Positions 10,822-24,836 of a DNA stretch of 64,000 bases are shown in pieces. The notes beneath the pieces are model-generated. The model was not told where the DNA came from, made no database searches, and was given only the letters and a program-made list of their open reading frames with translations. Source of the DNA: Acutalibacteraceae bacterium (GTDB lineage: Bacteria; Bacillota; Clostridia; Oscillospirales; Acutalibacteraceae); assembly GCA_045588855.1 (NCBI GenBank), contig JAZNEX010000115.1:6993-70992 (forward strand), given 5' to 3'. A program made the translations under genes and the position numbers. Each line of letters begins with the position of its first letter. Within the stretch, counting starts at the first letter, position 1.

Positions 10822-12852
10822 TTATTTCTTATACATAACGATCTGCAGCTTGCCGCCTTTAAATATTTCATCTGCAGATAATTTAAAATCAGTAATTCTT
10901 TTGTTGTTAAAATAAACCTCTTTAACATAAATATTTTCATCAGAGTTATCAATTACTTCAATCAGCAATTGTTTCCCCGAAGATAGTTGAATACTGCAAT
11001 TTTTTATTAGAGGGGAGGAAATATGAAAGTATTTTCTCCCTGCAATAGGATAAATGCCAACAGCATTAAAAACGTAATATGAAGAAAGTGCACCTGAATC
11101 GTTATTGCCGGGTAAACCGCCTCTGCCTGCAGTAAACATATATTTAAGTCCTGCACGTATGATCTCACAGGTTCTGTCATGCCTGTCTGCATATATGTAA
11201 GAAAACGGTGCTTCAATGTCAGATTCATTGTTGAAGCCTTCAAAGCGGCCGAGTTTTATTCCTTCTTCAACTGGCTTGTAATTAAAAGGATCTGTCGGCT
11301 GAATTACATCGTCTTTTCCGTAACCGAAGAAATCATCCAGGAGCTTTATAAATTTTTCTTTTCCTCCTGCAATAATAATCCGTTCATCCATATTGTACAT
11401 TTGTCTGAATGAGTAGTTGTAGTGTGTGCCTTCATAGTATTCACAGTCATCCTCAAGGAGTCCGGTATTTACATTATAAACTTTTTTCCATTGAGCAGCA
11501 AGAGGCATAAGACTTTCTTTTAATTGCTTATTACCGTTTTCTTCTGCTATTTCTGCTGCTAAAGCGCATGCGTCAGCCATATCAAGCATAAATGTATGGG
11601 ATTTGCACCTGCCGAATGTTGTAAAATCCCTTTTATCGTCAGCATTAATATCTGTTTTAATGACATTCAATAATCTGTACGGGTCCATTGAAATTCCGTA
11701 ACGGTAAGCTGTAATCAATGCATATGCGCCAAGCATTCTTGCCTGTTCGGAATGTTGATTATATTGATCGCTTATGCCGAAATTGTTTGGCAGATGTCCG
11801 AGAGTCTCTCCTAACTTAAGCAGTGTCTCGCAGATGCTTTCAGATGTATCTTTATCTGTAAGGAAAATCAGTGGCAGTGCAGTTTTGTACATGTCCCATA
11901 ATGTGGCAAAATCAGTCATAAACGGAGAATTTTTATCATAAACAAAGCTTTCACCGCACCAATCAGATGGTTTTATAAATGAATGATAGAGATTAGAATA
12001 GAAAATTTCATATAATCGTTCGTCATTGAATTCCGCACGGATCAAACCAAGCTTGTTGTTCCATATCTTATAGGCATTATCCCGTATTATATTAAACTCG
12101 AAAATATCGCTGATATTATTCAGAGCAGTGTCAGGGTTATTAAAGGAAACTGATACCTGAATTTCTGAAATCAGATTCTCAGGAACAGAAAATATTGCTT
12201 TTCCACCGTCTATTCTGCATTCAGAATTTCCTTTGGCTGCAAAAAATATTTTTATTCCTTCAATTACAGCGGACGCAGTAATAGTATTTTTGTCAATTTG
12301 CTTTAACTTAAGATTGAATACTTTTTTGTTTTCACATTCGGGTATGATTAAGCCGTTATTGGAAAAGTCAATTGTAACCTTACCGTTGTTTTTCCCGAAC
12401 GTATATCTGTGAAACGCTGTTTTCTGATTAACTGTGATTTCACACCGGATATCTTCTATAACACAACTGTAATAACCCGGTTCAGCATATTCATTGAAGA
12501 AATCTCTTCTGTATTCAGAGTTTTCATAGGCAGGTGTTGTTACTGCATAATTGTAATAATAACCTATAGCTCCGGTTCCGCTTTGATGAAGGTGTGAGAA
12601 GCCTATTAGCTTGTTCCCGAAATCAAAATGTGCAGGTCTTGAATGTGAATTCGGTTTATGATCACCGTATCCTGTAGGATAACCTCCGGTAAAAGGGGAT
12701 ACACTCATAGCTCCGAACGGAAGTACTGCAGCAGGGCTTGTATTTCCGCAACCTGCCTTAATAAAAAACCATTTGGCAGCTATGCCTTCGGGCTTCGGCA
12801 GATCTATTTCGCCCGTACCTTGAAAAACATTTACGTGTTTAATATAATCCAT
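10822..12852 (-). CDS. GH92-family alpha-mannosidase (cytoplasmic)
   Basis: GH92-type blocks LPFGAMSVSP, GFSHLHQSGTG and GNNDSGALSSYYVFNAVGIYP; no signal peptide; GGAG RBS. Confidence 0.85.
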   Translation of the reverse strand: MDYIKHVNVFQGTGEIDLPKPEGIAAKWFFIKAGCGNTSPAAVLPFGAMSVSPFTGGYPTGYGDHKPNSHSRPAHFDFGNKLIGFSHLHQSGTGAIGYYYNYAVTTPAYENSEYRRDFFNEYAEPGYYSCVIEDIRCEITVNQKTAFHRYTFGKNNGKVTIDFSNNGLIIPECENKKVFNLKLKQIDKNTITASAVIEGIKIFFAAKGNSECRIDGGKAIFSVPENLISEIQVSVSFNNPDTALNNISDIFEFNIIRDNAYKIWNNKLGLIRAEFNDERLYEIFYSNLYHSFIKPSDWCGESFVYDKNSPFMTDFATLWDMYKTALPLIFLTDKDTSESICETLLKLGETLGHLPNNFGISDQYNQHSEQARMLGAYALITAYRYGISMDPYRLLNVIKTDINADDKRDFTTFGRCKSHTFMLDMADACALAAEIAEENGNKQLKESLMPLAAQWKKVYNVNTGLLEDDCEYYEGTHYNYSFRQMYNMDERIIIAGGKEKFIKLLDDFFGYGKDDVIQPTDPFNYKPVEEGIKLGRFEGFNNESDIEAPFSYIYADRHDRTCEIIRAGLKYMFTAGRGGLPGNNDSGALSSYYVFNAVGIYPIAGRKYFHISSPLIKNCSIQLSSGKQLLIEVIDNSDENIYVKEVYFNNKRITDFKLSADEIFKGGKLQIVMYKK

Positions 12853-12861
12853 ATGAAGCTC

Positions 12862-15048
12862 CTATTTGATAATGATTTCCCGGTTTCCTGTTTTACTCTC
12901 AAAAGTGATAAGAACAGTAGAGCCTAATTCATCAAAATCAAATTTTATATTGTGGTTATCAAGCTTGATATCTGTAGGCTTAAAGGAAATCCTGATACGG
13001 ATATTTGCATTGAAATCACCGGCTCCCGAAATATCAAGTTTAATCTGACGGTCAAGTTCTTCTATTTTATTTATTCGAACAGATGTACCGATAATTTCGA
13101 CTGGATTGTTTATTTTTGTCAGATCAAATAACAGTGCCTTATCATTCGGCATCAGAATCTTTTCTGTAATAATTTCAAATTCGGGCGAGAACATATCAGC
13201 AAACAGTCCCTGAATTACAAGAGGATCATCATTTATGCTTTCATCAAGTACAGCTGCAATGATGTAGGGATCTCTGTTGAGGATAAGATGATTGGTAAAT
13301 TCGGGGTGATAGCCTTTTCTTGATGCAACTTCAATAAAGAAACTTCTGAGCTGTTCAGCGTTTTTTTCGGAATATGAAAACTTAACGGGATTAATTTTAT
13401 AAACAGCAGCCGTACCTTTTCCACAGTTGAAAATTGATTTTTCCTCATTCGGGTTAATTTCAAGCATTCTGAACAGATGTTCCGCAGGGATAGTGAATTT
13501 GCCTGTCCACCAGCTGTTAATGTTATTGAACGGGTCACTTCCGTCTCCGATATATATCAGTTGTCCTCCGTCTTTAACCCATGATGAAACAGAATTGTTG
13601 ATATCGGGATAATCGGGCTTCATAAATTCATAGCTCATAAGCAGCATATCGTAATCGTCAAGATAACCTGCGTATCTGCGTGCATTATCAACTAACACGG
13701 GTCTTACTTGTATGCCGTATTTAAGAAGTGGAAGAGCAATAGAGAAAAATCCGGGGAAAGCGTTTGACGACATAAACCGTAGCAGTAATTCTTTGTCGGA
13801 ATTTTCATTTATGAAAAGTTCATTTCTGAATTTATTTAAAAGTTCTTCATCATCATTCAGAACTGTACCTACAACTTCTTTGACTTCTTCATTGAAATAC
13901 ATATCAGGATATTCTCTTTGATATAATTCGCAATCGCCGACAAGGATTCCGACTCTGAATGAAGGCTCTTGTGCAGATTCAAGGGTTCCCAATGTATTAA
14001 AGGTGTTGTTTAATATGGTGGCATATTCATCGGGAATATCGATAGCATCTGCAGCATCCTTGGGATATTTGTTATAAAACACACGGTTTGGCCAGGGACA
14101 GATTTCATATGTATTAACTTTCGGATGAAGCAAGGATGCAATTACAGTGCATATATAGTTTTTTTTGTAATCTTCCCAGTCAAAAATAGGATTATCTTCT
14201 ATGGGGTCATGAAGGAACCACATTTTTCGACCTGTTCCTTTAACAAGCTCCTGCATAACACCATATTCAAGATAAGCTGTTTCGAATGTCCTCTCTTTAA
14301 GCACACCGTTGAACCAATTTTTTTCTCCTGCAGTTCCTGTCCATACCTGTGCTATACAACCGTCAACACCGGGAATATCGGCAAGCTTACCCTCGGGACT
14401 GACAATTTTCCATTGCGTGTAATTAATCAGTGAATGAGTCGGAACATAGAATCTGAGATTTTTATTATACTTGATTTTCGCATATTCCTTGAGTGAAGAA
14501 GAAAGCCTGTCGATTGTACGGGTATAAAGATATGCTTTTAATTTGCCGCATTTATATTTTGCATCTACACTTTCGTGCGGAGCAGTCCAAGGCTCACGGT
14601 AATATAATTCAAATTCTCTTTTGAATGCGGGTGAATAACCACCTCTATCCCAGAATTCCGGCTCTTCAACATGTATAGCTTCAACACCTGCGTCTACTAC
14701 GCATTTGAGTTTTTCAGTAAGATAGTCGCAAAATGATATTGTCGGGACCATATACGGAACATCTTTACCGTGAACTATAAGGTTACCGAATCGATCCTGC
14801 TGAGCTTCATCCCAATGATTGATTCCGTCGTATTCGCCATAAAGATAATCTGTGTAGTGCCCCCATGAAATCCCGGTCATAAAATGAATAACATATCCGG
14901 CTTCTTTGTGCTGTCGGATTCTTTCAATAGTTGTGTCTTCAAGTCGGTATACCATTACAAAATCGCATTGGCAATCGATTTTATCAAGGAGATTAGTGCC
15001 TGACTGAAAACCTGTGCGTTCCTCTTTTTTATTTCTGACAAATGCCAT
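12862..15048 (-). CDS. uncharacterised 728-aa cytoplasmic protein; glycoside hydrolase/phosphorylase-like by context only
   Basis: Strong GGAGGTG RBS; stop lies 9 nt before the GH92 start. A possible TIM-barrel catalytic motif HVEEPEFW is present, but I do not recognise the family. Confidence 0.5.
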   Translation of the reverse strand: MAFVRNKKEERTGFQSGTNLLDKIDCQCDFVMVYRLEDTTIERIRQHKEAGYVIHFMTGISWGHYTDYLYGEYDGINHWDEAQQDRFGNLIVHGKDVPYMVPTISFCDYLTEKLKCVVDAGVEAIHVEEPEFWDRGGYSPAFKREFELYYREPWTAPHESVDAKYKCGKLKAYLYTRTIDRLSSSLKEYAKIKYNKNLRFYVPTHSLINYTQWKIVSPEGKLADIPGVDGCIAQVWTGTAGEKNWFNGVLKERTFETAYLEYGVMQELVKGTGRKMWFLHDPIEDNPIFDWEDYKKNYICTVIASLLHPKVNTYEICPWPNRVFYNKYPKDAADAIDIPDEYATILNNTFNTLGTLESAQEPSFRVGILVGDCELYQREYPDMYFNEEVKEVVGTVLNDDEELLNKFRNELFINENSDKELLLRFMSSNAFPGFFSIALPLLKYGIQVRPVLVDNARRYAGYLDDYDMLLMSYEFMKPDYPDINNSVSSWVKDGGQLIYIGDGSDPFNNINSWWTGKFTIPAEHLFRMLEINPNEEKSIFNCGKGTAAVYKINPVKFSYSEKNAEQLRSFFIEVASRKGYHPEFTNHLILNRDPYIIAAVLDESINDDPLVIQGLFADMFSPEFEIITEKILMPNDKALLFDLTKINNPVEIIGTSVRINKIEELDRQIKLDISGAGDFNANIRIRISFKPTDIKLDNHNIKFDFDELGSTVLITFESKTGNREIIIK

Positions 15049-15263: not shown

Positions 15264-15953
15264 ATGAAAAACGATAAGAATTATGTTCTGACATTAGTCA
15301 GACACGCCGAATCTTGCGGAAATGCAGGCATTTTTTATGAAGATGAATATCTAAAGGATGATCCGCCATTGAGCCCGTTAGGTCTTAAGCAGGCTGAATT
15401 GCTTGCTCAGAGCAAGTTGCTTGAAAATGCGGATGTTATATTTTCGAGCACGCTTATACGTGCTGTTCAGACCGTTTATCCTTCTGCTCAGAAAATCGGT
15501 AAAAATATAATTCTGCTTTCCGATCTTATGGAGATCAATACTGAGATTCCGGGTACGGAATATTCGCGATTGAATGATAATTTTCCATTGGCTGTTGCTT
15601 GTATTTCAGAACCCACGCCTACGGGAGGACCTCTTTTGCTTGGAAAAGAAACAAATGAACTGATTGCAAAGAGAGCTGAGCGTTGTATCAATTTTTTTGC
15701 TGATTATGCTTCAGACGGCAGTCATATTGCTGTCATAACTCACGGTTCATATTTCGGTTTTCTTATGAGGGCAGCATTAGACATTGCTTTTCCCGAATCT
15801 TTTTGTTGGCAGGTTGATAATTGCAGTGTCACTCGTATTGTGTTCAGAAAGAATGAAATACCCAAGTTGGCTTTTTCTAATTATACAGGTCATCTTTTTC
15901 AGGAACCGATATTTCCATCATTTACTCAGTTTAATCAGGAGGTAGTAAAATGA
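15264..15953 (+). CDS. histidine phosphatase (phosphoglycerate-mutase-like) family protein
   Basis: N-terminal LVRHAES..N motif (RHG-type catalytic His); second His block ITHGSYF. Confidence 0.8.
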   Translation: MKNDKNYVLTLVRHAESCGNAGIFYEDEYLKDDPPLSPLGLKQAELLAQSKLLENADVIFSSTLIRAVQTVYPSAQKIGKNIILLSDLMEINTEIPGTEYSRLNDNFPLAVACISEPTPTGGPLLLGKETNELIAKRAERCINFFADYASDGSHIAVITHGSYFGFLMRAALDIAFPESFCWQVDNCSVTRIVFRKNEIPKLAFSNYTGHLFQEPIFPSFTQFNQEVVK

Positions 15954-16834
15954 GTAATTGTCCAAAATGTGATAAAAAGCTTCGCATAACTGATATCAGT
16001 CAATTTTGTCCGTCGTGCGGTGTTAATATGCGTTTTTATAATTTTGAAGAGAACTTTTTGCGTGAAGCTAAATATGCTGAGCTTTCTCAGGCAGGTCTTA
16101 AGGTTAAAATCAGAAATCTGAAGTATTCTTTTTCAGGTTCTAAGCTTATCACTGCAAAGCTTGTCGTTATGCTTCTTCCTCTCTTGTCTTTATTGATTCC
16201 GTCAGGCAATATTACTATTTCGCTTCCGTTTGTTACAAGCGAAGCACACTTCGGTATACTCGGTATTATTAATATTGTTACGGGCGGTTCATTGAATTAT
16301 ATTTTGGAAATGTGTAACTCTGCTGTAGCAGGGGCCGAATTTTCAGCACTCAGGAATGCACTTTTGGGTTTTGTTGCTGTTGCATTGTTATGTGTATTCT
16401 GCTTTATTTTTTCTTTTTTTGGTTTTATAAGCATAAAGAATATGCAGAAGCTTGCAACTGTTACCGCCGGTCTGGGCGTGGTTGCATCTGTTGCAACTCT
16501 CGTGCTGATTGCGGTATTTAACTCGGCAACCGCTGAATCGATGATCCTTTCTTCCGGGTTCGGTATTGGTCTTTTTGTTACAGTTCTTATGTTTATAGCT
16601 GTTTTTGTTGTCAATCTTCTTCTGTGGAAAAAAGGTATTCATCCTGTTTATGATGAAGGAGTTGAGGAAAGAGTCCGTATTTTCAAAGAGGTAAAGGCAG
16701 GCAGAATTAATATTGATGATCTTCCTCAGCCCGTTGTAGAAACTGAAGCTACAAGAAAGATAGATGAAGAAATTGCTAAGGAAGAAGCAGCTTTCTATGA
16801 AAAATTCAAAGGGGAGGAAAAAGTGAATGGCTGA
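15950..16834 (+). CDS. zinc-ribbon membrane protein, unknown function
   Basis: N-terminal CPKC...CPSC zinc ribbon, then about 4-5 TM segments and a charged C-terminal tail; ATGA overlap with upstream CDS. Confidence 0.6.
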   Translation: MSNCPKCDKKLRITDISQFCPSCGVNMRFYNFEENFLREAKYAELSQAGLKVKIRNLKYSFSGSKLITAKLVVMLLPLLSLLIPSGNITISLPFVTSEAHFGILGIINIVTGGSLNYILEMCNSAVAGAEFSALRNALLGFVAVALLCVFCFIFSFFGFISIKNMQKLATVTAGLGVVASVATLVLIAVFNSATAESMILSSGFGIGLFVTVLMFIAVFVVNLLLWKKGIHPVYDEGVEERVRIFKEVKAGRINIDDLPQPVVETEATRKIDEEIAKEEAAFYEKFKGEEKVNG

Positions 16835-18230
16835 TAAAAAATTTGATAAGCGTAAGCTTCTGACTACTTCGGTTACTTGTATTCTTGTCTTCTTCTTTGT
16901 CGGTGGTTTCTGGATCGGTCTTGACCGTGTCCGTTCAATGGAAGGTACATTTCCTCCCAATGATATAAAGGAAGGTATTTCTGATGCTCCTCTGACTGCA
17001 GAAGATGCGGTTGCATATCTCAACAAGGTAATAGATAAAGCACTTTCCGAAAAACCAAAGCTTTCTTCTGATGATAATTTTTCTGTTGATTCAGATTCTC
17101 TTGTGACTGATGGTAGTGATACGCTTAAGACTACATTGCTTTTCGCAAAGGACGGTTTCAGAAATTATATATCTTCTGCAGAAGATGTGGAAAGAAAGGT
17201 TACTGAGGTTAATTTCGGAGAAGATTTAAGTAAATTGCTTCGCATACCCGAAACGGATGGTCTTGAGGTTGCTGACTTTAAGTGTAATTACATTTATTAT
17301 CAGTGTCCGTCATGCGGTCTTACTTCAGATGAGCAATTAAGTAATTGTGAACCTTGCGGATCTAACAGAGAATATTTTATTAAATATCGTTCTGAATATG
17401 AGATTGAGCTTACTTTTTCTCCGGAAATAGCTGAATCCTCTCCGGAACAGTTTGAGAAAAATTTCCCCGTCAGAAGCGATGATGAGATTGATTCTCTTAC
17501 TTCTGCAGTGCTTGATGATGTTCTTAGTGTCGAAAACAGAGAGATTTCATACAATTCGTTTAAGATTTATTTTAAGGTTAATCGTCTTACCGATGAAATT
17601 ACATATCTGAGCTTTATAAAAGGTATTGATGTCAAGGCAGATGTTTCTTTCCTTGGAAAATATGAAGCTCTTGGCTCTGCCGGTATCAGTTTTTCAATGA
17701 ATGAATTTATGAATTACGGGTTCACTTGGCCCGCTCTTACGCTTAATAATGAAATCCTTGAGATTGAGCCTAAGGGTACAGATAATCTTCTTGCGACTCT
17801 TACCTGTGAAGATCCTCTTGCAATGACGGTATCCTGGAAGTCTTCAGATGAGAGTATCGCTGTTGTTGATGCTGACGGATACATTGATGCCACATCCAAA
17901 ACAGGAGAAGCTATTATTGAAGCTTCCTATGAATATCTCGGAAAGACCTATACTGATACTTGCACAGTTGTTGTAAAGGTCCCTGTAGAATCAATGAAAA
18001 TGAGCAAAAAAAATGTTGATCTTACTGTTGGCGAAACATTTACTCTCAGCACTAAGGTATCGCCTAAAAATGCAACTATTCAGACTGTAAAATGGTATTC
18101 TGAAGATGAGAGCATTGCAACAGTTGATGGAGACGGTGTTGTTACCGCAATTTCACAGGGCAAGACAATTGTATATGCTCTTTCTGATGACGGATATTTC
18201 AGATCTACTTGTGAGGTGACAGTTGAATGA
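16827..18230 (+). CDS. membrane-anchored protein with an internal zinc ribbon and two C-terminal Big_2 (bacterial Ig-like) domains
   Basis: N-terminal TM segment; CPSC...CEPC motif; two repeats of the Big_2 pattern (SSDESIAVVDADG..., SEDESIATVDGDGVVTA); 8-nt overlap with upstream CDS. Confidence 0.65.
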   Translation: MADKKFDKRKLLTTSVTCILVFFFVGGFWIGLDRVRSMEGTFPPNDIKEGISDAPLTAEDAVAYLNKVIDKALSEKPKLSSDDNFSVDSDSLVTDGSDTLKTTLLFAKDGFRNYISSAEDVERKVTEVNFGEDLSKLLRIPETDGLEVADFKCNYIYYQCPSCGLTSDEQLSNCEPCGSNREYFIKYRSEYEIELTFSPEIAESSPEQFEKNFPVRSDDEIDSLTSAVLDDVLSVENREISYNSFKIYFKVNRLTDEITYLSFIKGIDVKADVSFLGKYEALGSAGISFSMNEFMNYGFTWPALTLNNEILEIEPKGTDNLLATLTCEDPLAMTVSWKSSDESIAVVDADGYIDATSKTGEAIIEASYEYLGKTYTDTCTVVVKVPVESMKMSKKNVDLTVGETFTLSTKVSPKNATIQTVKWYSEDESIATVDGDGVVTAISQGKTIVYALSDDGYFRSTCEVTVE

Positions 18231-19855
18231 GTGAAAATAATAATAAAAATGTAAAAAATTTCGTTCAGGGTGTTTTTACCGCAGAAAATAATTCAGCTGC
18301 ATCGCTTGCTGATGAGCAAAGAATGAAATACAGCAAACTTGCAATTAAGATGTTCCATACGAATGTTCTTACTCCGAAAGAAATGTTCTTACCTGCAATC
18401 GGTGAGTTTGCTACTAAGCTACTCGGTGGTGTAAATACATACAGAACTCTTTATTTTGTTAATGTACTTAAGATTGATATGGTTTATGTAACCGTCATTC
18501 TTTCTCTTATCAGTATTTATGATATGCTTAACAATCCTCTTATGGGTATCATTTATGATAAGACGCGTACCCGTTGGGGTAAAGCTCGTCCATGGGTTGT
18601 GTTCGGTGCTATACCTTATTTTGCAAGTACATTTATGCTGTACTCAGGCGCATTGTTCCTCGGTAATACATCGGGTGATGATCCTAAGAAAATAATTTTT
18701 GTTTTCTCTATGCTGTTTATTCAGGAGACATTCTCTACTATTTACAATATTCCCAGAGGCAATCTCCTTTCTCTTCAGACTGCAAATCCCCAAGACAGAA
18801 TTACTGTTGGTTTGTTGCAGACTTATATCGGTGAAGCTGCTTCTCAGGGTGTGTATACAATTTTCCCGCCTCTTATGGAGCTTAATAATAAGGGTATTAT
18901 TAATCTTCCTATGTCAATTGTTTTTGCAGCTCTTGCCACGATTTCATGTACTGTTGGTGCAATCGGTAATATCGGTATGGCAATCGGCTGTCAGGAGCGT
19001 ATTGCTCTTCAGCCGAAACCTGCTCCGATTACTAAGACAATGTTCTACATTCTTAAAAACAAATATGCCCTCAGAAATTATATTGCCGGTTTTGCAACTT
19101 CATGGTGGAGTTCCGGCGGCTATTCATGGGATGTTGTTACTCAGCAGGAAATATTCGGCGGTTCAATACCTTCGTTCCTTGCATATTCAATATATAATGC
19201 ATGTGATATGCCGTCAGCTGCACTTATTCCCAAATTCAGAAAGATATTTAAGGACAATAATAAGAACGCACTTATAGCTCTGCGTTTGTGGGATATGGTT
19301 GCAATTGCAGGTATGGTATGTTGCGGTCTTCCTGTTATCAAGAAATTCGGTAAGAATTCTAAATGGATTATGGTAATTGTTTATGCAATATTCCATGGTC
19401 TTAACGGTATTAACAACGGTCCTGCAAATGTATTTGAAGCAGAGGTTGCCAGAGAAATCAACGACTATACAGAATACGTTACCGGTGAACGTCCTGATGG
19501 TACAATGAATATTCTTACTGATCTGATTACTAAGATTACAGCTCCGCTTAATGCTGCATTTACTATTTTCCTGTTTAAGTGGTCCGGTTATGATCCGACG
19601 ATTCCTATGCTTCCCTGGTCTCAGGGCAGTTCAACAATATACCAGAGAGTTTTCTTCCTGTTTGTCGGCATTGATCTTTTCCCGAAGATTCTTCATGTTG
19701 TTCCGTATTTCTTCTATGACCTTACAGGTGAAAAGAGAGAGCAGATGTATATTGCGCTTAATGAGCGACGTGCATTGCTTGCAAAAGAACAAACGGTAAA
19801 TGAAGAGATTCTTGAAATGATGGAAAATCTTGAAGAAACCGTAGAGGTAGATTGA
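18227..19855 (+). CDS. GPH-family (glycoside-pentoside-hexuronide) cation symporter
   Basis: GPH signature DKTRTRWGKARPW after TM2; about 12 TM segments; ATGA overlap with upstream CDS. Confidence 0.85.
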   Translation: MSENNNKNVKNFVQGVFTAENNSAASLADEQRMKYSKLAIKMFHTNVLTPKEMFLPAIGEFATKLLGGVNTYRTLYFVNVLKIDMVYVTVILSLISIYDMLNNPLMGIIYDKTRTRWGKARPWVVFGAIPYFASTFMLYSGALFLGNTSGDDPKKIIFVFSMLFIQETFSTIYNIPRGNLLSLQTANPQDRITVGLLQTYIGEAASQGVYTIFPPLMELNNKGIINLPMSIVFAALATISCTVGAIGNIGMAIGCQERIALQPKPAPITKTMFYILKNKYALRNYIAGFATSWWSSGGYSWDVVTQQEIFGGSIPSFLAYSIYNACDMPSAALIPKFRKIFKDNNKNALIALRLWDMVAIAGMVCCGLPVIKKFGKNSKWIMVIVYAIFHGLNGINNGPANVFEAEVAREINDYTEYVTGERPDGTMNILTDLITKITAPLNAAFTIFLFKWSGYDPTIPMLPWSQGSSTIYQRVFFLFVGIDLFPKILHVVPYFFYDLTGEKREQMYIALNERRALLAKEQTVNEEILEMMENLEETVEVD

Positions 19856-19856
19856 T

Positions 19857-21107
19857 ATGGAACAGTTTATTAAAGATCAGATAACGGCAGGTTTGAAGCA
19901 CCTTCCCGGAAATCTTCTTAAATCATATTTTATACGAAGCTGTTCTGAAGAAACAAAAGAATTCAGAAATAAAATCGGTTTTATCCGTGGTGTCTGCCAT
20001 CCCACTGATAATTATACTCAGATTAAGGGTGCTAATATCGGTTGGATACGAATTGATATTCCTTTTCCCTTTGAAAATGACGGTAAGGTTTCTGAGTCAT
20101 ATAAATCTTTTAAAGAAAGATGCAGAAGCTTTCAGAATAACGGTATAAGGGTTATGGCTGTTACGCCGTATCCAAAGGATTATATAGATTTCGGTGCGGA
20201 TATCAGAACTGATGAAGGCACAAAAAAAGTCAAAGAAATTGCTGAATTTCTCATAAAAGATATGCAGGGTTGTGTATCAGGCTTTCAGATTACAAATGAA
20301 ATGGGAATTCCTCGTTTTACTTTACCGCTGACACTTAAAGAGGCTGCTAAGTTTATTGGTGTCAATCTTGAAGCTATGTATCCTTTTAAGAATGATATTA
20401 TTCTCGGGTACAACAGTGCAGGTCCCGAAGCTTTGCTTCATTCGGAATTGTTGCCTTATGTCGGCTTTTGTGATTATGTAGGTGTTGATATATACATGGG
20501 GTGCTTCTTTAATGTTCCCGGATTTATCTGGATTTTTGAAGCATTATGCAGATATCTGTGGGCGATGACAGGGAAACCTGTTCTTATACAGGAATTCGGT
20601 TATCTCAGCGGCGGTGCGCCGAAAACGCGAGCGGAAAAGAAAGCTATGCTTATGCGTTATGGTGCTTCCAGCGAAAAGGAAGCAAAGAAGAATATTGAAA
20701 AGTTTGTTTCCGATATGCCTGAGCATTTTGCAGATCATATAAGATATGTATGCGAGAATGATCCGTCAAGATATTTTGGTTTTCTTTTCAAAAGCGATAT
20801 GGTAAATCATTTTTACTGTGAATTACCTCGTCTGACTAAAATTCCCGGATATCCTCATACACCTGACGGTCAAGCCAGATTCTTTGAGGATTGTATCAGT
20901 CATCTGTACAGCCTCGGTTTTATATGTGGTTGTAATATTTATTGCTACAAGGATCCCGAAATGTGTTATTATTGCGGACAGGAAGATTGTCCTACGGAAA
21001 CGCGATGGGGACTTGTTGATGCAAAAGGCAACGAAAAACCTTCTTACAGATCAGTAAGAAATGTTTTTGGCAGAATAAAGTGGCTCGAGGCCGTAGAGAA
21101 AAAATAA
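19857..21107 (+). CDS. clan GH-A-like (beta/alpha)8 glycoside hydrolase, unclassified family
   Basis: Candidate acid/base motif FQITNEMG and nucleophile motif VLIQEFGY at typical spacing; C-terminal WGLVD..G..KPSY; start 1 nt after the transporter stop. Confidence 0.5.
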   Translation: MEQFIKDQITAGLKHLPGNLLKSYFIRSCSEETKEFRNKIGFIRGVCHPTDNYTQIKGANIGWIRIDIPFPFENDGKVSESYKSFKERCRSFQNNGIRVMAVTPYPKDYIDFGADIRTDEGTKKVKEIAEFLIKDMQGCVSGFQITNEMGIPRFTLPLTLKEAAKFIGVNLEAMYPFKNDIILGYNSAGPEALLHSELLPYVGFCDYVGVDIYMGCFFNVPGFIWIFEALCRYLWAMTGKPVLIQEFGYLSGGAPKTRAEKKAMLMRYGASSEKEAKKNIEKFVSDMPEHFADHIRYVCENDPSRYFGFLFKSDMVNHFYCELPRLTKIPGYPHTPDGQARFFEDCISHLYSLGFICGCNIYCYKDPEMCYYCGQEDCPTETRWGLVDAKGNEKPSYRSVRNVFGRIKWLEAVEKK

Positions 21108-21154: not shown

Positions 21155-22045
21155 ATGAGCAACAAATTTTTTGATGCGGTTTTAAGAGAAATTGACCCGA
21201 TTTACGATGCTGCAATTATCACCTCGGACGGCATTGAGTATTGGCATAATGAAAATTGCAATTACGCAAATAACGGTCATTCAGTCACTAAGTTTTTTAT
21301 TTCATCTGCAATCGGTGTACTTGTTTCAAGGAAACAAATCAGATTAGATGACAAAGTTTTATCTTTTTTATATGAAAGTGATATCGGTCAGTCTGTTGAT
21401 CCCGGTTGGAATAGTGTTACAGTCGAGCATTGTTTGATGCATAAAACAGGAATTCTTCATATTCCGTACGGTGTAGATGAAGATGATCACATTGCACTTA
21501 TCGGTAAAGATTTTCTGAAATATATTTTTTCATTAAGAATTGATGCTGAACCGGGTACGGAGTATAAATATTCAGACGCGGCATATTATCTGCTCGGCAG
21601 AATTATTCATAAGGTTACAGGTATCACAGCATATGAATTTATAAAAAATAATTTAGCTGATCCGCTTGGATTCAAGCAGTGGGGAATGTTGCTTTGTCCG
21701 ATGGGGCATACAATCGGTGGTGGCGGATTGTATTCCCGAAGTGATGATAATGCTAAGCTTGGTTTTTTATGGGCAAATGAGGGTAAACTCGGCTCTGAAG
21801 AAATTATTTCGGCGGAGTATATAAAGGCTGCAATGGAAAATGATTATGCATCTACTTCTTTCAGAGGGACCGATGTTTTTCTGAAAACCGGTTCAAAGGG
21901 GCAGTGTGTCGCCTACTCTCTGAAAAGAAAAGCTGCTGCCGCGTGGCATGGTTATTCATATGAGGACGGCAATAACAGAAATGACAGATTGTTATCTGCT
22001 TTTTGTGACTATCTTGACGATAAATTCGGAAAAACGGAGGAATAA
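21155..22045 (+). CDS. beta-lactamase-fold serine hydrolase (class C / family VIII esterase-like), cytoplasmic
   Basis: SxxK (SVTK), YSD (Y-x-N position) and KTG (LKTGSKG) motifs; no signal peptide. Confidence 0.75.
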   Translation: MSNKFFDAVLREIDPIYDAAIITSDGIEYWHNENCNYANNGHSVTKFFISSAIGVLVSRKQIRLDDKVLSFLYESDIGQSVDPGWNSVTVEHCLMHKTGILHIPYGVDEDDHIALIGKDFLKYIFSLRIDAEPGTEYKYSDAAYYLLGRIIHKVTGITAYEFIKNNLADPLGFKQWGMLLCPMGHTIGGGGLYSRSDDNAKLGFLWANEGKLGSEEIISAEYIKAAMENDYASTSFRGTDVFLKTGSKGQCVAYSLKRKAAAAWHGYSYEDGNNRNDRLLSAFCDYLDDKFGKTEE

Positions 22046-22047
22046 AT

Positions 22048-22833
22048 ATGAGATTCGGTGTGTGTACCGGTATTGATAATGAAGAAAATGTAAGAATTGC
22101 AGCAGAAAGCGGTTATGATTATATTGAATGCGGTTTTCAGATGTTTGCTAATGCAACAGAAGAACAATTAGCTGAGTGGGAAGAACGCGAAAAAAAATAC
22201 GGCATTTATTCAGAAGCGGCAAATTGCTTTTTGCCGGGTTCTTTGCCGGTTACAGGTGATAATGTAGACTATGAAGCTCTTAAGGAATTTGTTGCAAGAG
22301 GAATGAAGAATTCAGCACGAATGGGATTGAAAACTGTAGTTTTCGGTTCATCGGGAGCAAGAAGTATCAAAGAAGGTTATTCTTATGAAAAAGCTGTAAG
22401 GCAGATGGCGTATTTTTTGCGTGAAATTGCTTCTCCTGAGGCTGCTAAATATGGTATTACTGTTGTTACCGAGCCATTACAAAAGGCTGAAACTAATATG
22501 ATAAATACTGTTAAAGAAGGTGTAATGTTGGCTGCTATGGCTGACAGAGATAATATTCGGTGCCTTGCAGATTTATTTCATATGGAACAGTGCGGAGATA
22601 CCGCCGAAGATATTCTTATGATAAAAGATTCAATTATTCATGCTCATATATCTAACCCTGTCGGAAGAGATGGGAAGAAGAGAATTTATCCGCTTTCGGC
22701 AGATGAATTCGACTATAAATCTTTCATTGATGCACTTGAAAAAGGTTCATGCCAGAGGTGTTCCATTGAGGCTTCCGTAACTGATTTTGAAGTTGAGGCA
22801 CCTGCCGCCATAAAAATGCTGAAAAGTCTTTGA
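22048..22833 (+). CDS. xylose-isomerase-like TIM-barrel protein (sugar phosphate isomerase/epimerase family)
   Basis: Family-typical N-terminus MRFGVCT... and length; start 2 nt after the upstream stop. Confidence 0.75.
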   Translation: MRFGVCTGIDNEENVRIAAESGYDYIECGFQMFANATEEQLAEWEEREKKYGIYSEAANCFLPGSLPVTGDNVDYEALKEFVARGMKNSARMGLKTVVFGSSGARSIKEGYSYEKAVRQMAYFLREIASPEAAKYGITVVTEPLQKAETNMINTVKEGVMLAAMADRDNIRCLADLFHMEQCGDTAEDILMIKDSIIHAHISNPVGRDGKKRIYPLSADEFDYKSFIDALEKGSCQRCSIEASVTDFEVEAPAAIKMLKSL

Positions 22834-22902
22834 TCAATTCATTTATAAAGAAAAAAATTAAATTTTATGATTAAGTATTTTGTATACCGGAGGTAAAGTA
22901 TT

Positions 22903-23697
22903 ATGATGAAAATCGGTGTTATTCCTGATTCTTTTCAGGTTCCCTTCAAGGAGGCAGTGATTCTTGCACGCGATATGGGTGTTAAGGGGTTGCAGCCTTA
23001 TGTTACGGGTGGGGAGCTTGCACCCGAAAATCTTTCAAAACAGGATAGAGCTGATGTTCTTAAGTTTGTAAATGATAATGGGCTTGTTTTTTCTGCTCTG
23101 TGTGCTGATTTCGGCCTTCATTTTAATGAAAAAGATACAAATGAAGAGGGGATAATCCGCACAATGAAAATGATGGACCTTGCAGTTGATTTTGATACCA
23201 AAGTTATCACAACTCACATCGGCAGAGTTCCGGATGATGAAAACAGCGAGGAATATTATAATATAGTAAACACCATTGAAAGACTCGGTAAATATGGTGA
23301 TAAGATCGGTGTTTCTTTTGCAACCGAAACAGGACCCGAAATGGCAGTCAAGCTCAGAGGAATACTTGAAAAAGCAGATACCAAAAGCGCAAAGGTTAAT
23401 CTTGATCCTGCAAACTTTGTTATGTGCGCAGGTCAGGATCCTGTTGAAGCAGTTCATATTCTTAAAGATTATATCGTTCACACACATGCTAAGGATGGTG
23501 TAAAGCTTTCTGCGACTGATTATCAGGAATATCCTTTAGGTCAGGGAGGAGTACCATTCCCTGAATATATTGCTGCTCTTAAGGAAATCGGTTATGACGG
23601 ATTCCTGACTATTGAAAGAGAAGCAGGTGCAACTCGTTTTAATGATATAAAAAATGCAGTAGGATTTTTGACAGATATTCTTAATAAATTATATTGA
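22903..23697 (+). CDS. xylose-isomerase-like TIM-barrel protein (sugar phosphate isomerase/epimerase family)
   Basis: Family-typical layout (MKIGV..., HTHAKDG, LTIERE metal-site-like blocks); GGAGG RBS. Confidence 0.75.
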   Translation: MMKIGVIPDSFQVPFKEAVILARDMGVKGLQPYVTGGELAPENLSKQDRADVLKFVNDNGLVFSALCADFGLHFNEKDTNEEGIIRTMKMMDLAVDFDTKVITTHIGRVPDDENSEEYYNIVNTIERLGKYGDKIGVSFATETGPEMAVKLRGILEKADTKSAKVNLDPANFVMCAGQDPVEAVHILKDYIVHTHAKDGVKLSATDYQEYPLGQGGVPFPEYIAALKEIGYDGFLTIEREAGATRFNDIKNAVGFLTDILNKLY

Positions 23698-23715
23698 TAA
23701 GGAGAAAGATAAACT

Positions 23716-24774
23716 ATGGCACTTAAAGTCGGAATCATCGGTAATGGCGGTATTGCCAATGCCCACATGGACGGTTATCTTGCATTGGGTGATGAAGTTG
23801 AGCTTGTTGCCTGCTGTGATATTGATTATTCTAAAGCGAAGGCATATGCTGAAAAATATAATATTCCTGCTTGTTACGATAATTGTTATGATATGCTCAA
23901 AAATCATAAGCTCGATGTGGTCAGTGTATGTACATGGAATAATGCTCATGCAGAATGTTCTATAGCAGCACTTAATGCAGGTTGTAATGTTCTTTGTGAA
24001 AAGCCGATGGCAATGAACACCGAAGAAGCTCTTAAGATGAAAGAAGCTGCTGAAAAGAACGGCAAGCTTCTTATGATTGGTTTTGTACGCCGTCAGGGTA
24101 ATGACGCTGCAGCCGCTATTGATTATATAAAAAAAGGTTTCGTCGGAGATATCTATTATGCAAAAGCTTCATATCTGCGCCGCTGCGGTTTCCCGGGAGG
24201 TTGGTTCGGAAATAAAGAGCTTTCAGGCGGTGGCCCGCTTATTGATCTCGGAGTTCATGTCATAGACCTTTCACGATATATCATGGGATGTCCGAAGCCT
24301 GTAACTGTTTTCGGTGCAACATTTGATAAAATCGGAGCCCGCAGTCATATAAAGGGCACAGAGTGGCAAAGTGAAACAAAGGTTGAAAAACCGATATTTA
24401 CAGTTGAAGATCTTGCGACAGCAATGATACGTTTTGATAACGGCGCTGTACTTCATGTAGAAGCATCTTTCAATCTTAATCGTAAGGATAATTGCGGGGA
24501 TATTATTTTTTACGGAGATAAAGCCGGACTCAATCTCAGTCCTTTTGAACTTTATACCGAAGTTAATAATGAACTTGCAGATATTGTTCCTCACGGACAG
24601 AATGATTTTGATTTTGCGCGCGATTTTAAGAGAGAGATTAAAAATTTTGTTGATGCCGTTAACGGAAAAGCTGAATGTCTTGCTACAGCTGATGACGGTG
24701 TTGAGCTTATGCGGATTCTTGATGCTATTTATCTTTCGGCGCAAACAGGTAAATCAGTAGACATTGTCAGATAA
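23716..24774 (+). CDS. Gfo/Idh/MocA-family NAD(P)-dependent oxidoreductase
   Basis: Rossmann N-terminus KVGIIGNGGIANAH and the family EKP motif (LCEKPMA). Confidence 0.9.
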   Translation: MALKVGIIGNGGIANAHMDGYLALGDEVELVACCDIDYSKAKAYAEKYNIPACYDNCYDMLKNHKLDVVSVCTWNNAHAECSIAALNAGCNVLCEKPMAMNTEEALKMKEAAEKNGKLLMIGFVRRQGNDAAAAIDYIKKGFVGDIYYAKASYLRRCGFPGGWFGNKELSGGGPLIDLGVHVIDLSRYIMGCPKPVTVFGATFDKIGARSHIKGTEWQSETKVEKPIFTVEDLATAMIRFDNGAVLHVEASFNLNRKDNCGDIIFYGDKAGLNLSPFELYTEVNNELADIVPHGQNDFDFARDFKREIKNFVDAVNGKAECLATADDGVELMRILDAIYLSAQTGKSVDIVR

Positions 24775-24796: not shown

Positions 24797-24836
24797 AAGG
24801 ACCCCGGCAGTTAATTCTGCCGGGGCCCTTGTTTTG
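24797..24836. terminator. bidirectional intrinsic terminator
   Basis: GC-rich stem AAGGACCCCGGCAG / CTGCCGGGGCCCTT between convergent genes. Confidence 0.75.

Follow-up and report, generated by a model that had tools for sequence, protein, structure and literature searches.

The DNA examined here, called the window, is a stretch of 64,000 nucleotides from an Acutalibacteraceae bacterium (assembly GCA_045588855.1, contig JAZNEX010000115.1, positions 6,993 to 70,992 of the forward strand), and our subject is the three genes that end one of its operons. They encode a 261-residue barrel (TIM1), a 264-residue barrel (TIM2) and a 352-residue dehydrogenase (DH), and they probably form a module that makes and processes a 3-keto sugar or 3-keto-glycoside. 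The source genome is 3.0 Mb in size and 97% complete, and its nearest public relatives are metagenome-assembled genomes that bear the labels Acutalibacteraceae, Oscillospiraceae or Clostridia and that in some cases come from the gut of ruminants. Numbered from the first letter of the window, the three genes and the element that follows them are:

22048..22833, plus strand: TIM1, a xylose-isomerase-like TIM barrel similar to ketose 3-epimerases and to YcjR (PF01261, E 5.6e-25)
22903..23697, plus strand: TIM2, a xylose-isomerase-like TIM barrel of a 3tva-like family, the conserved upstream partner of DH (PF01261, E 1.7e-30)
23716..24774, plus strand: DH, a Gfo/Idh/MocA dehydrogenase from the group of DgpA, a glycoside 3-oxidoreductase (PF01408, E 4.7e-32; PF02894, E 1e-24; PF22725, E 1e-21)
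24797..24830, no strand assigned: a strong bidirectional intrinsic terminator closing the operon (stem of 14 pairs, 10 of them G-C, flanked by T runs in either direction)

Open reading frame calls and Pfam searches confirmed what a sequence-only reading of the same DNA had described, namely two barrel genes and a Gfo/Idh/MocA dehydrogenase gene with these coordinates at the end of an operon. The operon comprises nine genes from position 15264, of which TIM1, TIM2 and DH are the last three. Each of the three has a Shine-Dalgarno sequence (GGAGG or AGGAG) 7-10 nt upstream of its ATG, and the gaps from the preceding hydrolase gene through TIM1 and TIM2 to DH are 2, 69 and 18 nt. The two barrels are distinct proteins rather than duplicates, since their 29% identity extends over 55 residues only. 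A promoter-like site close to consensus (TTGACA, 16 nt, TATATT; 11 of 12 matches) lies at 23668-23695, within the end of TIM2 and just upstream of DH; it may be a chance occurrence or an internal promoter.

The dehydrogenase is the component whose relationships are clearest. Among its sequence matches in the PDB, DgpA1 of strain W974-1 (9m3d) comes first with 202 bits and E 1.3e-58, DgpA of strain PUE (7xr9) second with 170 bits, and an aldose-aldose oxidoreductase third with 94 bits. Inositol dehydrogenase structures reach at most 90 bits, and Oxido1 of P2B11 (8tdi) 52 bits. The alignment is full length, with DH residues 3-350 aligned to both DgpA proteins and, in 9m3d, to residues 4-364. DgpA1 and DgpA have the CEKPMA and GGGPLIDLGVH segments of DH unchanged at the aligned places. 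In this family, the lysine of EKP and the Asp/His pair of GGGPLIDxGxH are the catalytic residues. DH falls below every NCBIfam equivalog cut-off tested, with 138.8 bits against 650 for levoglucosan dehydrogenase (NF052479), 133 against 355 for IolG (TIGR04380), 47.4 against 750 for the BT_2158 model (NF058561) and 43.7 against 650 for the BT_2159 model (NF058563); by these curated cut-offs it is neither an IolG nor an LgdA. The likeness to DgpA, one of several systems named in the sequence-only reading, is supported, and DH is a close relative of the DgpA-type glycoside 3-oxidoreductases, with oxidation at C3 as its predicted reaction. DgpA itself oxidizes the 3-hydroxyl of puerarin and of further C- and O-glycosides (PMC9939296, PMC11239390).

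The association of this dehydrogenase with TIM2 extends far beyond the window. A search for TIM2 relatives in one genome per species found at least 579 of them, and in many distant Clostridia a DH ortholog with 46-56% identity lies directly downstream. A close DH ortholog lies no more than three called genes away from TIM2 in 32 of the 60 loci whose flanks were long enough to evaluate. A quick maximum-likelihood tree unites 33 of the dehydrogenases in a clade with an SH-aLRT support of 100; a called TIM2 adjoins 28 of the 33, and the window DH falls within an 11-member subclade that is also supported at 100. Four DgpA-like DH paralogs encoded in its own genome (35-41% identity) are placed outside the 33-member clade. 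The TIM2-DH pair is therefore ancient and widespread in Clostridia. In its commonest layout, a divergent AraC-type regulator is followed by TIM2, DH and a third barrel, TIM2', which is 24-30% identical to TIM2. TIM2' carries an invariant Glu-Asn-His (VENHG) on the strand that bears the first metal ligand, which is the E-x-H arrangement of published 3-keto-glycoside beta-eliminases, and its profile matches the catalytic (alpha) subunits of C-glycoside deglycosidases (7bvs, 71 bits; 7bvr, 54; 9m3b, 47), three entries that are not among the matches listed for the TIM1 and TIM2 profiles. The window operon has no lyase-like TIM2' barrel. Since L010, which is basal in the DH subclade, retains TIM2' downstream of DH, the simplest reading is that TIM2, DH and TIM2' are the ancestral set and that the lineage of the window lost TIM2' from its cassette. 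Two further loci, L015 and L016, have two or three tandem TIM2 paralogs that are 45-69% identical to the window TIM2, and those of L016 stand upstream of one DH.

Both window barrels keep a Glu-Asp-His-Glu metal site, at E142, D175, H200 and E241 in TIM1 and at E142, D168, H195 and E238 in TIM2, where these four residues and H105 are invariant. The AF2 model of TIM1 (pLDDT 96.3) gives VIA Z scores of 27.8 to D-psicose 3-epimerase and 26.3 to YcjR, and the TIM1 profile scores 35 bits to YcjR (6wn6) and 42 bits to IolI. Residues E142, E148, D175, H178 and H200 align with the segments IEVLNRFE, LDTFHM and HFH of 2hk0, and E241 is invariant in the family. In D-psicose 3-epimerase, the metal site includes two catalytic Glu residues, and a Glu six residues on and a His three residues after the Asp bind the substrate; TIM1 has this residue set. 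With 47.2 bits against a cut-off of 300 on the D-psicose 3-epimerase equivalog (NF051856), TIM1 is by its sequence a relative, not an ortholog, of that enzyme. Of the 401 genomes of the order, 56 encode a TIM1 homolog at about the 50% identity level. The AF2 model of TIM2 (pLDDT 93.8) is closest to 3tva, an uncharacterized planctomycete protein (Z 30.9), and also matches Art22 (29.8) and AtHYD (28.3; root-mean-square deviation 2.5 over 262 residues); TIM2 scores 23.8 bits on the IolE model TIGR04379, whose cut-off is 290.

In the operon, the histidine phosphatase, zinc-ribbon and Big_2 genes are followed by the symporter, a 416-residue protein and the beta-lactamase-fold hydrolase, then by TIM1, TIM2 and DH. 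The features upstream of TIM1 are:

21155..22045, plus strand: a cytoplasmic beta-lactamase-fold serine hydrolase, a candidate esterase or deacylase (PF00144, E 1.3e-23)
19857..21107, plus strand: a 416-residue protein, possibly a clan GH-A-like glycosidase (a lead only, from protein-atlas features: GH10, GH1 and Glyco_hydro_cc clusters at 0.94-0.95)
18227..19855, plus strand: a GPH/MFS_2-type glycoside:cation symporter (PF13347 at 109.5 bits; TIGR00792 at 119 bits, short of the 231 that its cut-off requires)
15264..18230, plus strand: the first three operon genes, for a histidine phosphatase (PF00300), a zinc-ribbon membrane protein (PF13248, below cut-off) and a Big_2-domain protein (PF02368)
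10822..15048, minus strand: a divergent pair of genes, for a 728-residue GH42-like protein and a glycoside hydrolase family 92 (GH92) alpha-mannosidase (GH92 domains, E 9.9e-66)

The symporter had been named as a GPH symporter upstream in the sequence-only reading, and its PF13347 match bears this out. The stop codon of the beta-lactamase-fold hydrolase is 2 nt before the TIM1 start, and this protein also weakly matches NF045925 (3-succinylated cholic acid synthase). The 728-residue protein (12862-15048, minus strand) matches atlas entries described as beta-galactosidase-like at 0.99 and a GH42-carrying cluster at 0.93, a weak lead from atlas features only, and neither it nor the 416-residue protein has a match in Pfam, NCBIfam or PDB sequence searches; both are conserved. 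A GH38 mannosidase is encoded farther upstream of the divergent pair. Pfam and NCBIfam scans found no kinase, aldolase or further iol gene among the operon proteins, so that an earlier remark to this effect about the locus holds within the operon.

The whole operon is kept in four close relatives. The esterase stays with TIM1, TIM2 and DH in L002, L004, L005 and L009, and the same four loci keep a homolog of the 728-residue protein beside the operon. In L009 the order is shuffled (symporter, an acetyltransferase-like gene, TIM2, DH, the 416-residue protein, a phosphoesterase, the esterase and TIM1), and that the genes stay linked despite this change argues for a functional unit. A phosphatase directly precedes TIM1, TIM2 and DH in L001 and L006, and a GH36 alpha-galactosidase adjoins the trio in L001, L006 and L012. 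In L001, L004 and L006, about 740 bp separate TIM1 from TIM2, as compared with 69 bp in the window, and an antisense open reading frame of about 200 codons with no Pfam match lies there.

Several other loci of the same genome bear on the role of the trio. A complete-looking iol cluster is located on another contig (G000:C29:12167-18331), where IolG, IolE and IolD score 452, 415 and 910 bits, all above cut-off, together with an IolB-like gene (105 bits, below its cut-off of 205) and a gene for a 501-residue protein. The trio was therefore rejected as part of an inositol pathway, its scores lying far below the IolG and IolE cut-offs and this cluster having an IolG, IolE and IolD of its own. The sequence-only reading had foreseen that the trio might prove orthologous to inositol genes with the missing ones elsewhere; this did not prove to be so, as the iol genes found elsewhere come with their own IolG and IolE. 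A paralogous cluster on contig C60 (L151, G000:C60:6144-9019) encodes a DgpA-like DH (39% identical to that of the window), a barrel with an H-x-H motif (FHNH) and a barrel with an E-x-H motif (LEMH), and it looks like a complete oxidative glycoside-cleavage set. An orphan TIM2' ortholog (L149, G000:C43:78168-79031; 404 bits, IENHG) has a gene for a PPC-domain protein on one side and one for a TadA-like deaminase on the other, and no dehydrogenase gene is close to it. Finally, at a contig end (L150, G000:C59:299-5879), a GDSL esterase, a GH4 glycosidase and a phosphoglucomutase-like gene precede a canonical TIM2-family gene, and the order GH4, phosphoglucomutase-like gene, TIM2 recurs in L060 and L069. 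GH4 enzymes work via a 3-keto intermediate.

A dfg-like cluster of five genes in another Clostridia genome (L156, G583:C1:167000-172500) encodes a DgpA-like DH that is 36% identical to the window DH, a 304-residue barrel (IENC), a second dehydrogenase, a DgpC-like barrel and a CGDB protein. The 304-residue barrel is 25% identical to TIM2, so that in this cluster as well a TIM2-related barrel goes together with a DgpA-like enzyme. From their places in the cluster, it and the second dehydrogenase might correspond to DfgD and DfgC, which is a lead only; DfgCD has been published as an O-glucosidase (PMC11170127, PMC8398226). A proposed equivalence of TIM2' with DfgD was dropped, as the 184-bit profile match on which it relied came from an outlier row (L068), and pairwise comparison of TIM2' with the IENC-bearing second barrel of L156 gave 20% identity.

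The explanation that we favor, and hold to be moderately probable, has DH produce a 3-keto sugar or 3-keto-glycoside and the two barrels work on the carbons adjacent to the keto group via a metal-bound enediolate. The analysis shows how the genes are arranged, which families they belong to, that the TIM2-DH pairing is conserved and which motifs the proteins carry; every chemical step and the substrate are inferred from this. The trio would thus be a cytoplasmic keto-sugar module ending an operon that imports and trims a glycoside. DH would first oxidize the C3 hydroxyl of the glycoside, or of a sugar released from it, probably with a tightly bound NAD that later returns the hydride to a 3-keto-hexose product. 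The Glu-Asp-His-Glu sites of the barrels could then abstract a proton from the carbon beside the keto group. TIM2 would most likely take an enone or a 3-keto product, hydrating or isomerizing a 2-hydroxy-3-keto-glycal or a 3-keto-hexose, and TIM1, which has the residue set of ketose 3-epimerases, would most likely invert a center beside the keto group so that reduction yields a common hexose. Any bond breaking could be spontaneous, given a good leaving group, or be done by TIM2 or by the orphan TIM2' encoded elsewhere in the genome. DH itself probably also catalyzes the closing reduction, a reaction that DgpA and AL3 carry out on 3-keto-glucose (10.1101/816074; bioRxiv 10.1101/2024.03.25.586180). 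In the published scheme, oxidation, elimination, hydration and reduction follow one another and the same dehydrogenase shuttles the hydride to 3-keto-glucose (bioRxiv 10.1101/2024.03.25.586180). The neighboring genes for mannosidases, an esterase and phosphatases hint at a decorated hexoside as the substrate.

Several observations weigh against this explanation. In 28 of the 60 evaluable loci TIM2 stands without DH, for example after GH4 and the phosphoglucomutase-like gene, and the homologs of TIM1 have no constant partner in the 20 neighborhoods inspected, which include GH39 with a racemase, ABC ATPases and others. The top structural matches of TIM2, tied within about 2.5 Z, mix isomerases, epimerases, a dehydratase and a hydratase, and include no characterized close relative. 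The operon also has glycosidase-like proteins, which may make an oxidative cleavage route needless. A DgpB-type subunit (Pfam CGDB, PF19906) has no match in the 97%-complete genome, in a search whose control found the subunit in four of 300 Clostridia genomes. Moreover, the [E/H]-x-H motif of DgpC, DfgA, AtOGE and BT1 is absent from both barrels, the corresponding strand reading TEPL in TIM1 and TETG in TIM2. In known lyases this motif joins a Glu or His metal ligand to a catalytic His two residues on, as with H132 and H134 of AtOGE and H143 of the PUE enzyme (PMC10628242), and His178 and His180 of AL1 have the same arrangement (bioRxiv 10.1101/2024.03.25.586180). The likening of the two barrels to such lyases, made in the sequence-only reading, therefore did not hold, TIM1 being instead like ketose 3-epimerases and YcjR; a C-glycoside lyase of the DgpBC or DfgAB type was rejected for want of CGDB in the genome and of E-x-H in either barrel. 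What survives of the keto-sugar scheme put forward there is its general idea, a dehydrogenase followed by barrels, which fits the wider cassette in Clostridia. Its cleavage part fares less well in view of the absent lyase motif, the absent DgpB and the epimerase-like TIM1.

Whether the trio cleaves a glycoside or epimerizes a sugar is the point on which the alternatives divide. Full non-hydrolytic cleavage, a subset of the favored explanation that we regard as possible and yet short of an even chance, would have DH form the 3-keto-glycoside, one barrel eliminate the aglycone or next sugar, the other hydrate the resulting glycal, and DH reduce 3-keto-hexose to hexose. It draws on the DgpA-like character of DH, the lyase-like barrel of related cassettes, and the TIM2-related barrel that adjoins a DgpA-like DH in the dfg-like cluster, taken with the published O-glucosidase DfgCD (PMC11170127). 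In addition, the BT1 and AL1 lyases have a catalytic Glu near C2 (bioRxiv 10.1101/2024.03.25.586180), which makes a Glu-based TIM2 lyase conceivable. This version has to contend, however, with two barrels devoid of the [E/H]-x-H motif, one of them carrying an epimerase residue set, and with the loss from the operon of the TIM2' that basal L010 keeps. Epimerization in the manner of YcjQRS is somewhat less likely still, though a live rival: DH would oxidize a rare glycoside or sugar at C3, and once a barrel had inverted C2 or C4, reduction would give a common glucoside or mannoside for the glycosidases of the locus to hydrolyze. The matches of TIM1 to ketose 3-epimerases and to YcjR, a 3-keto-D-glucoside 4-epimerase, agree with this, as do the two metal-site Glu residues kept in both barrels, the lack of a lyase motif in either, and the glycosidase-like genes around the trio (the 416-residue protein, the GH42-like protein, GH92 and GH38). 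Yet no YcjQ-type zinc dehydrogenase was found by Pfam among the operon proteins, members of the DH clade in other lineages usually come with a lyase-like barrel, and the score of TIM1 on the psicose 3-epimerase equivalog is far under its cut-off. A side branch of cyclitol or free-sugar metabolism, in which DH would oxidize an inositol isomer or anhydro-sugar and an IolI-like barrel would isomerize the inosose or keto-sugar into the iol pathway, is very improbable, for although the genome has a complete-looking iol cluster, TIM1 reaches 42 bits to IolI, DH has some affinity to the IolG and levoglucosan dehydrogenase models and an alpha-galactosidase adjoins the trio in three relatives, DH is far closer to DgpA than to the inositol dehydrogenase structures and stays under the IolG cut-off, the iol cluster comes with an IolG and an IolE of its own, and the transporter is of the GPH glycoside type. 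A further proposal, which we think unlikely, is that the TIM2 family is a new 3-keto-glycoside-processing enzyme, a regular partner of DgpA-clade dehydrogenases that uses glutamates rather than the histidine of the [E/H]-x-H motif. If this proposal about TIM2 is true, the operon would define a route by which Oscillospirales of gut and rumen process, through oxidation, a glycoside that is acylated or phosphorylated and perhaps comes from mannan.

Non-hydrolytic glycoside breakdown via 3-keto intermediates has only recently been recognized in gut bacteria. Both anomers are substrates for it, as are thio- and C-glycosides, and it therefore influences what becomes of glycosides from the diet and from drugs. 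The locus suggests that the TIM2-DH pair can be rewired, here with the loss of a lyase-like gene and the gain of an epimerase-like barrel, an esterase and a symporter. Moreover, a function for TIM2 would annotate hundreds of genes that are labeled only as sugar phosphate isomerase/epimerase.

Among known systems, DgpA, DgpA1 and DfgE of gut Clostridia (Dorea PUE, W974-1 and Eubacterium cellulosolvens) are closest to DH, with the same Gfo/Idh/MocA fold, full-length alignment and shared motifs. In contrast to DgpABC, however, the trio has no DgpB (CGDB) or DgpC partner found in the genome, and the partners of DH are a 3tva-like and an epimerase-like barrel. The broad-specificity 3-keto pathways of BT2156-2160/AL1-5 and of the Gram-positive P2B11 (Iso1-Oxido1-Oxido2-Iso2) likewise combine Gfo/Idh/MocA proteins with TIM barrels, and their "sugar phosphate isomerase" proteins are a lyase and a hydratase acting on 3-keto-glycosides (bioRxiv 10.1101/2024.03.25.586180). 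The trio resembles P2B11 in being cytoplasmic and without a DUF1080 protein, but it has one dehydrogenase instead of two, lacks H-x-H in both barrels and gives low DH scores against these systems. In Agrobacterium tumefaciens, GlycDH, AtOGE and AtHYD form a pathway in which oxidation is followed by beta-elimination in one TIM barrel and hydration in another (PMC10628242). TIM2 resembles AtHYD, although that match is tied with many barrels, GlycDH is a different kind of dehydrogenase, and the H132-x-H134 of AtOGE is absent here. The levoglucosan pathway of Bacillus (LgdA/LgdB1/LgdB2/LgdC; PMC7676230) also joins one Gfo/Idh/MocA dehydrogenase with two TIM barrels acting on a 3-keto sugar, but DH scores only 139 bits against the cut-off of 650, and the trio is without an LgdC-like second reductase.

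The remaining likenesses concern TIM1 and the protein families at large. E. coli YcjQRS, which converts guloside to glucoside, pairs a Gfo/Idh/MocA 3-dehydrogenase with a TIM-barrel epimerase, and TIM1 shares with YcjR and the ketose 3-epimerases both the fold and the pattern of Glu, Glu six residues on, Asp, His three residues after the Asp, and His. Nevertheless, the operon is without a YcjQ-type zinc dehydrogenase, and TIM1 is only about 20% identical to these enzymes and under the equivalog cut-offs. IolG, IolE and IolI belong to the same two protein families, but the trio scores below cut-off for IolG (133 against 355) and IolE (24 against 290). The earlier suggestion that such a pathway may be undescribed in Clostridia is not correct, as DgpABC of Dorea PUE, DfgABCDE/DfgCD of Eubacterium cellulosolvens and Catenibacillus, and P2B11 have been published (PMC11170127, PMC9939296, bioRxiv 10.1101/2024.03.25.586180). 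The locus is a variant of published non-hydrolytic glycoside processing, not a new pathway class. It is set apart by two barrels that both belong to families without a characterized member and both do without the known lyase motif, by the missing ancestral lyase-like gene, and by a TIM2-DH pair that stands within a larger operon for transport and trimming.

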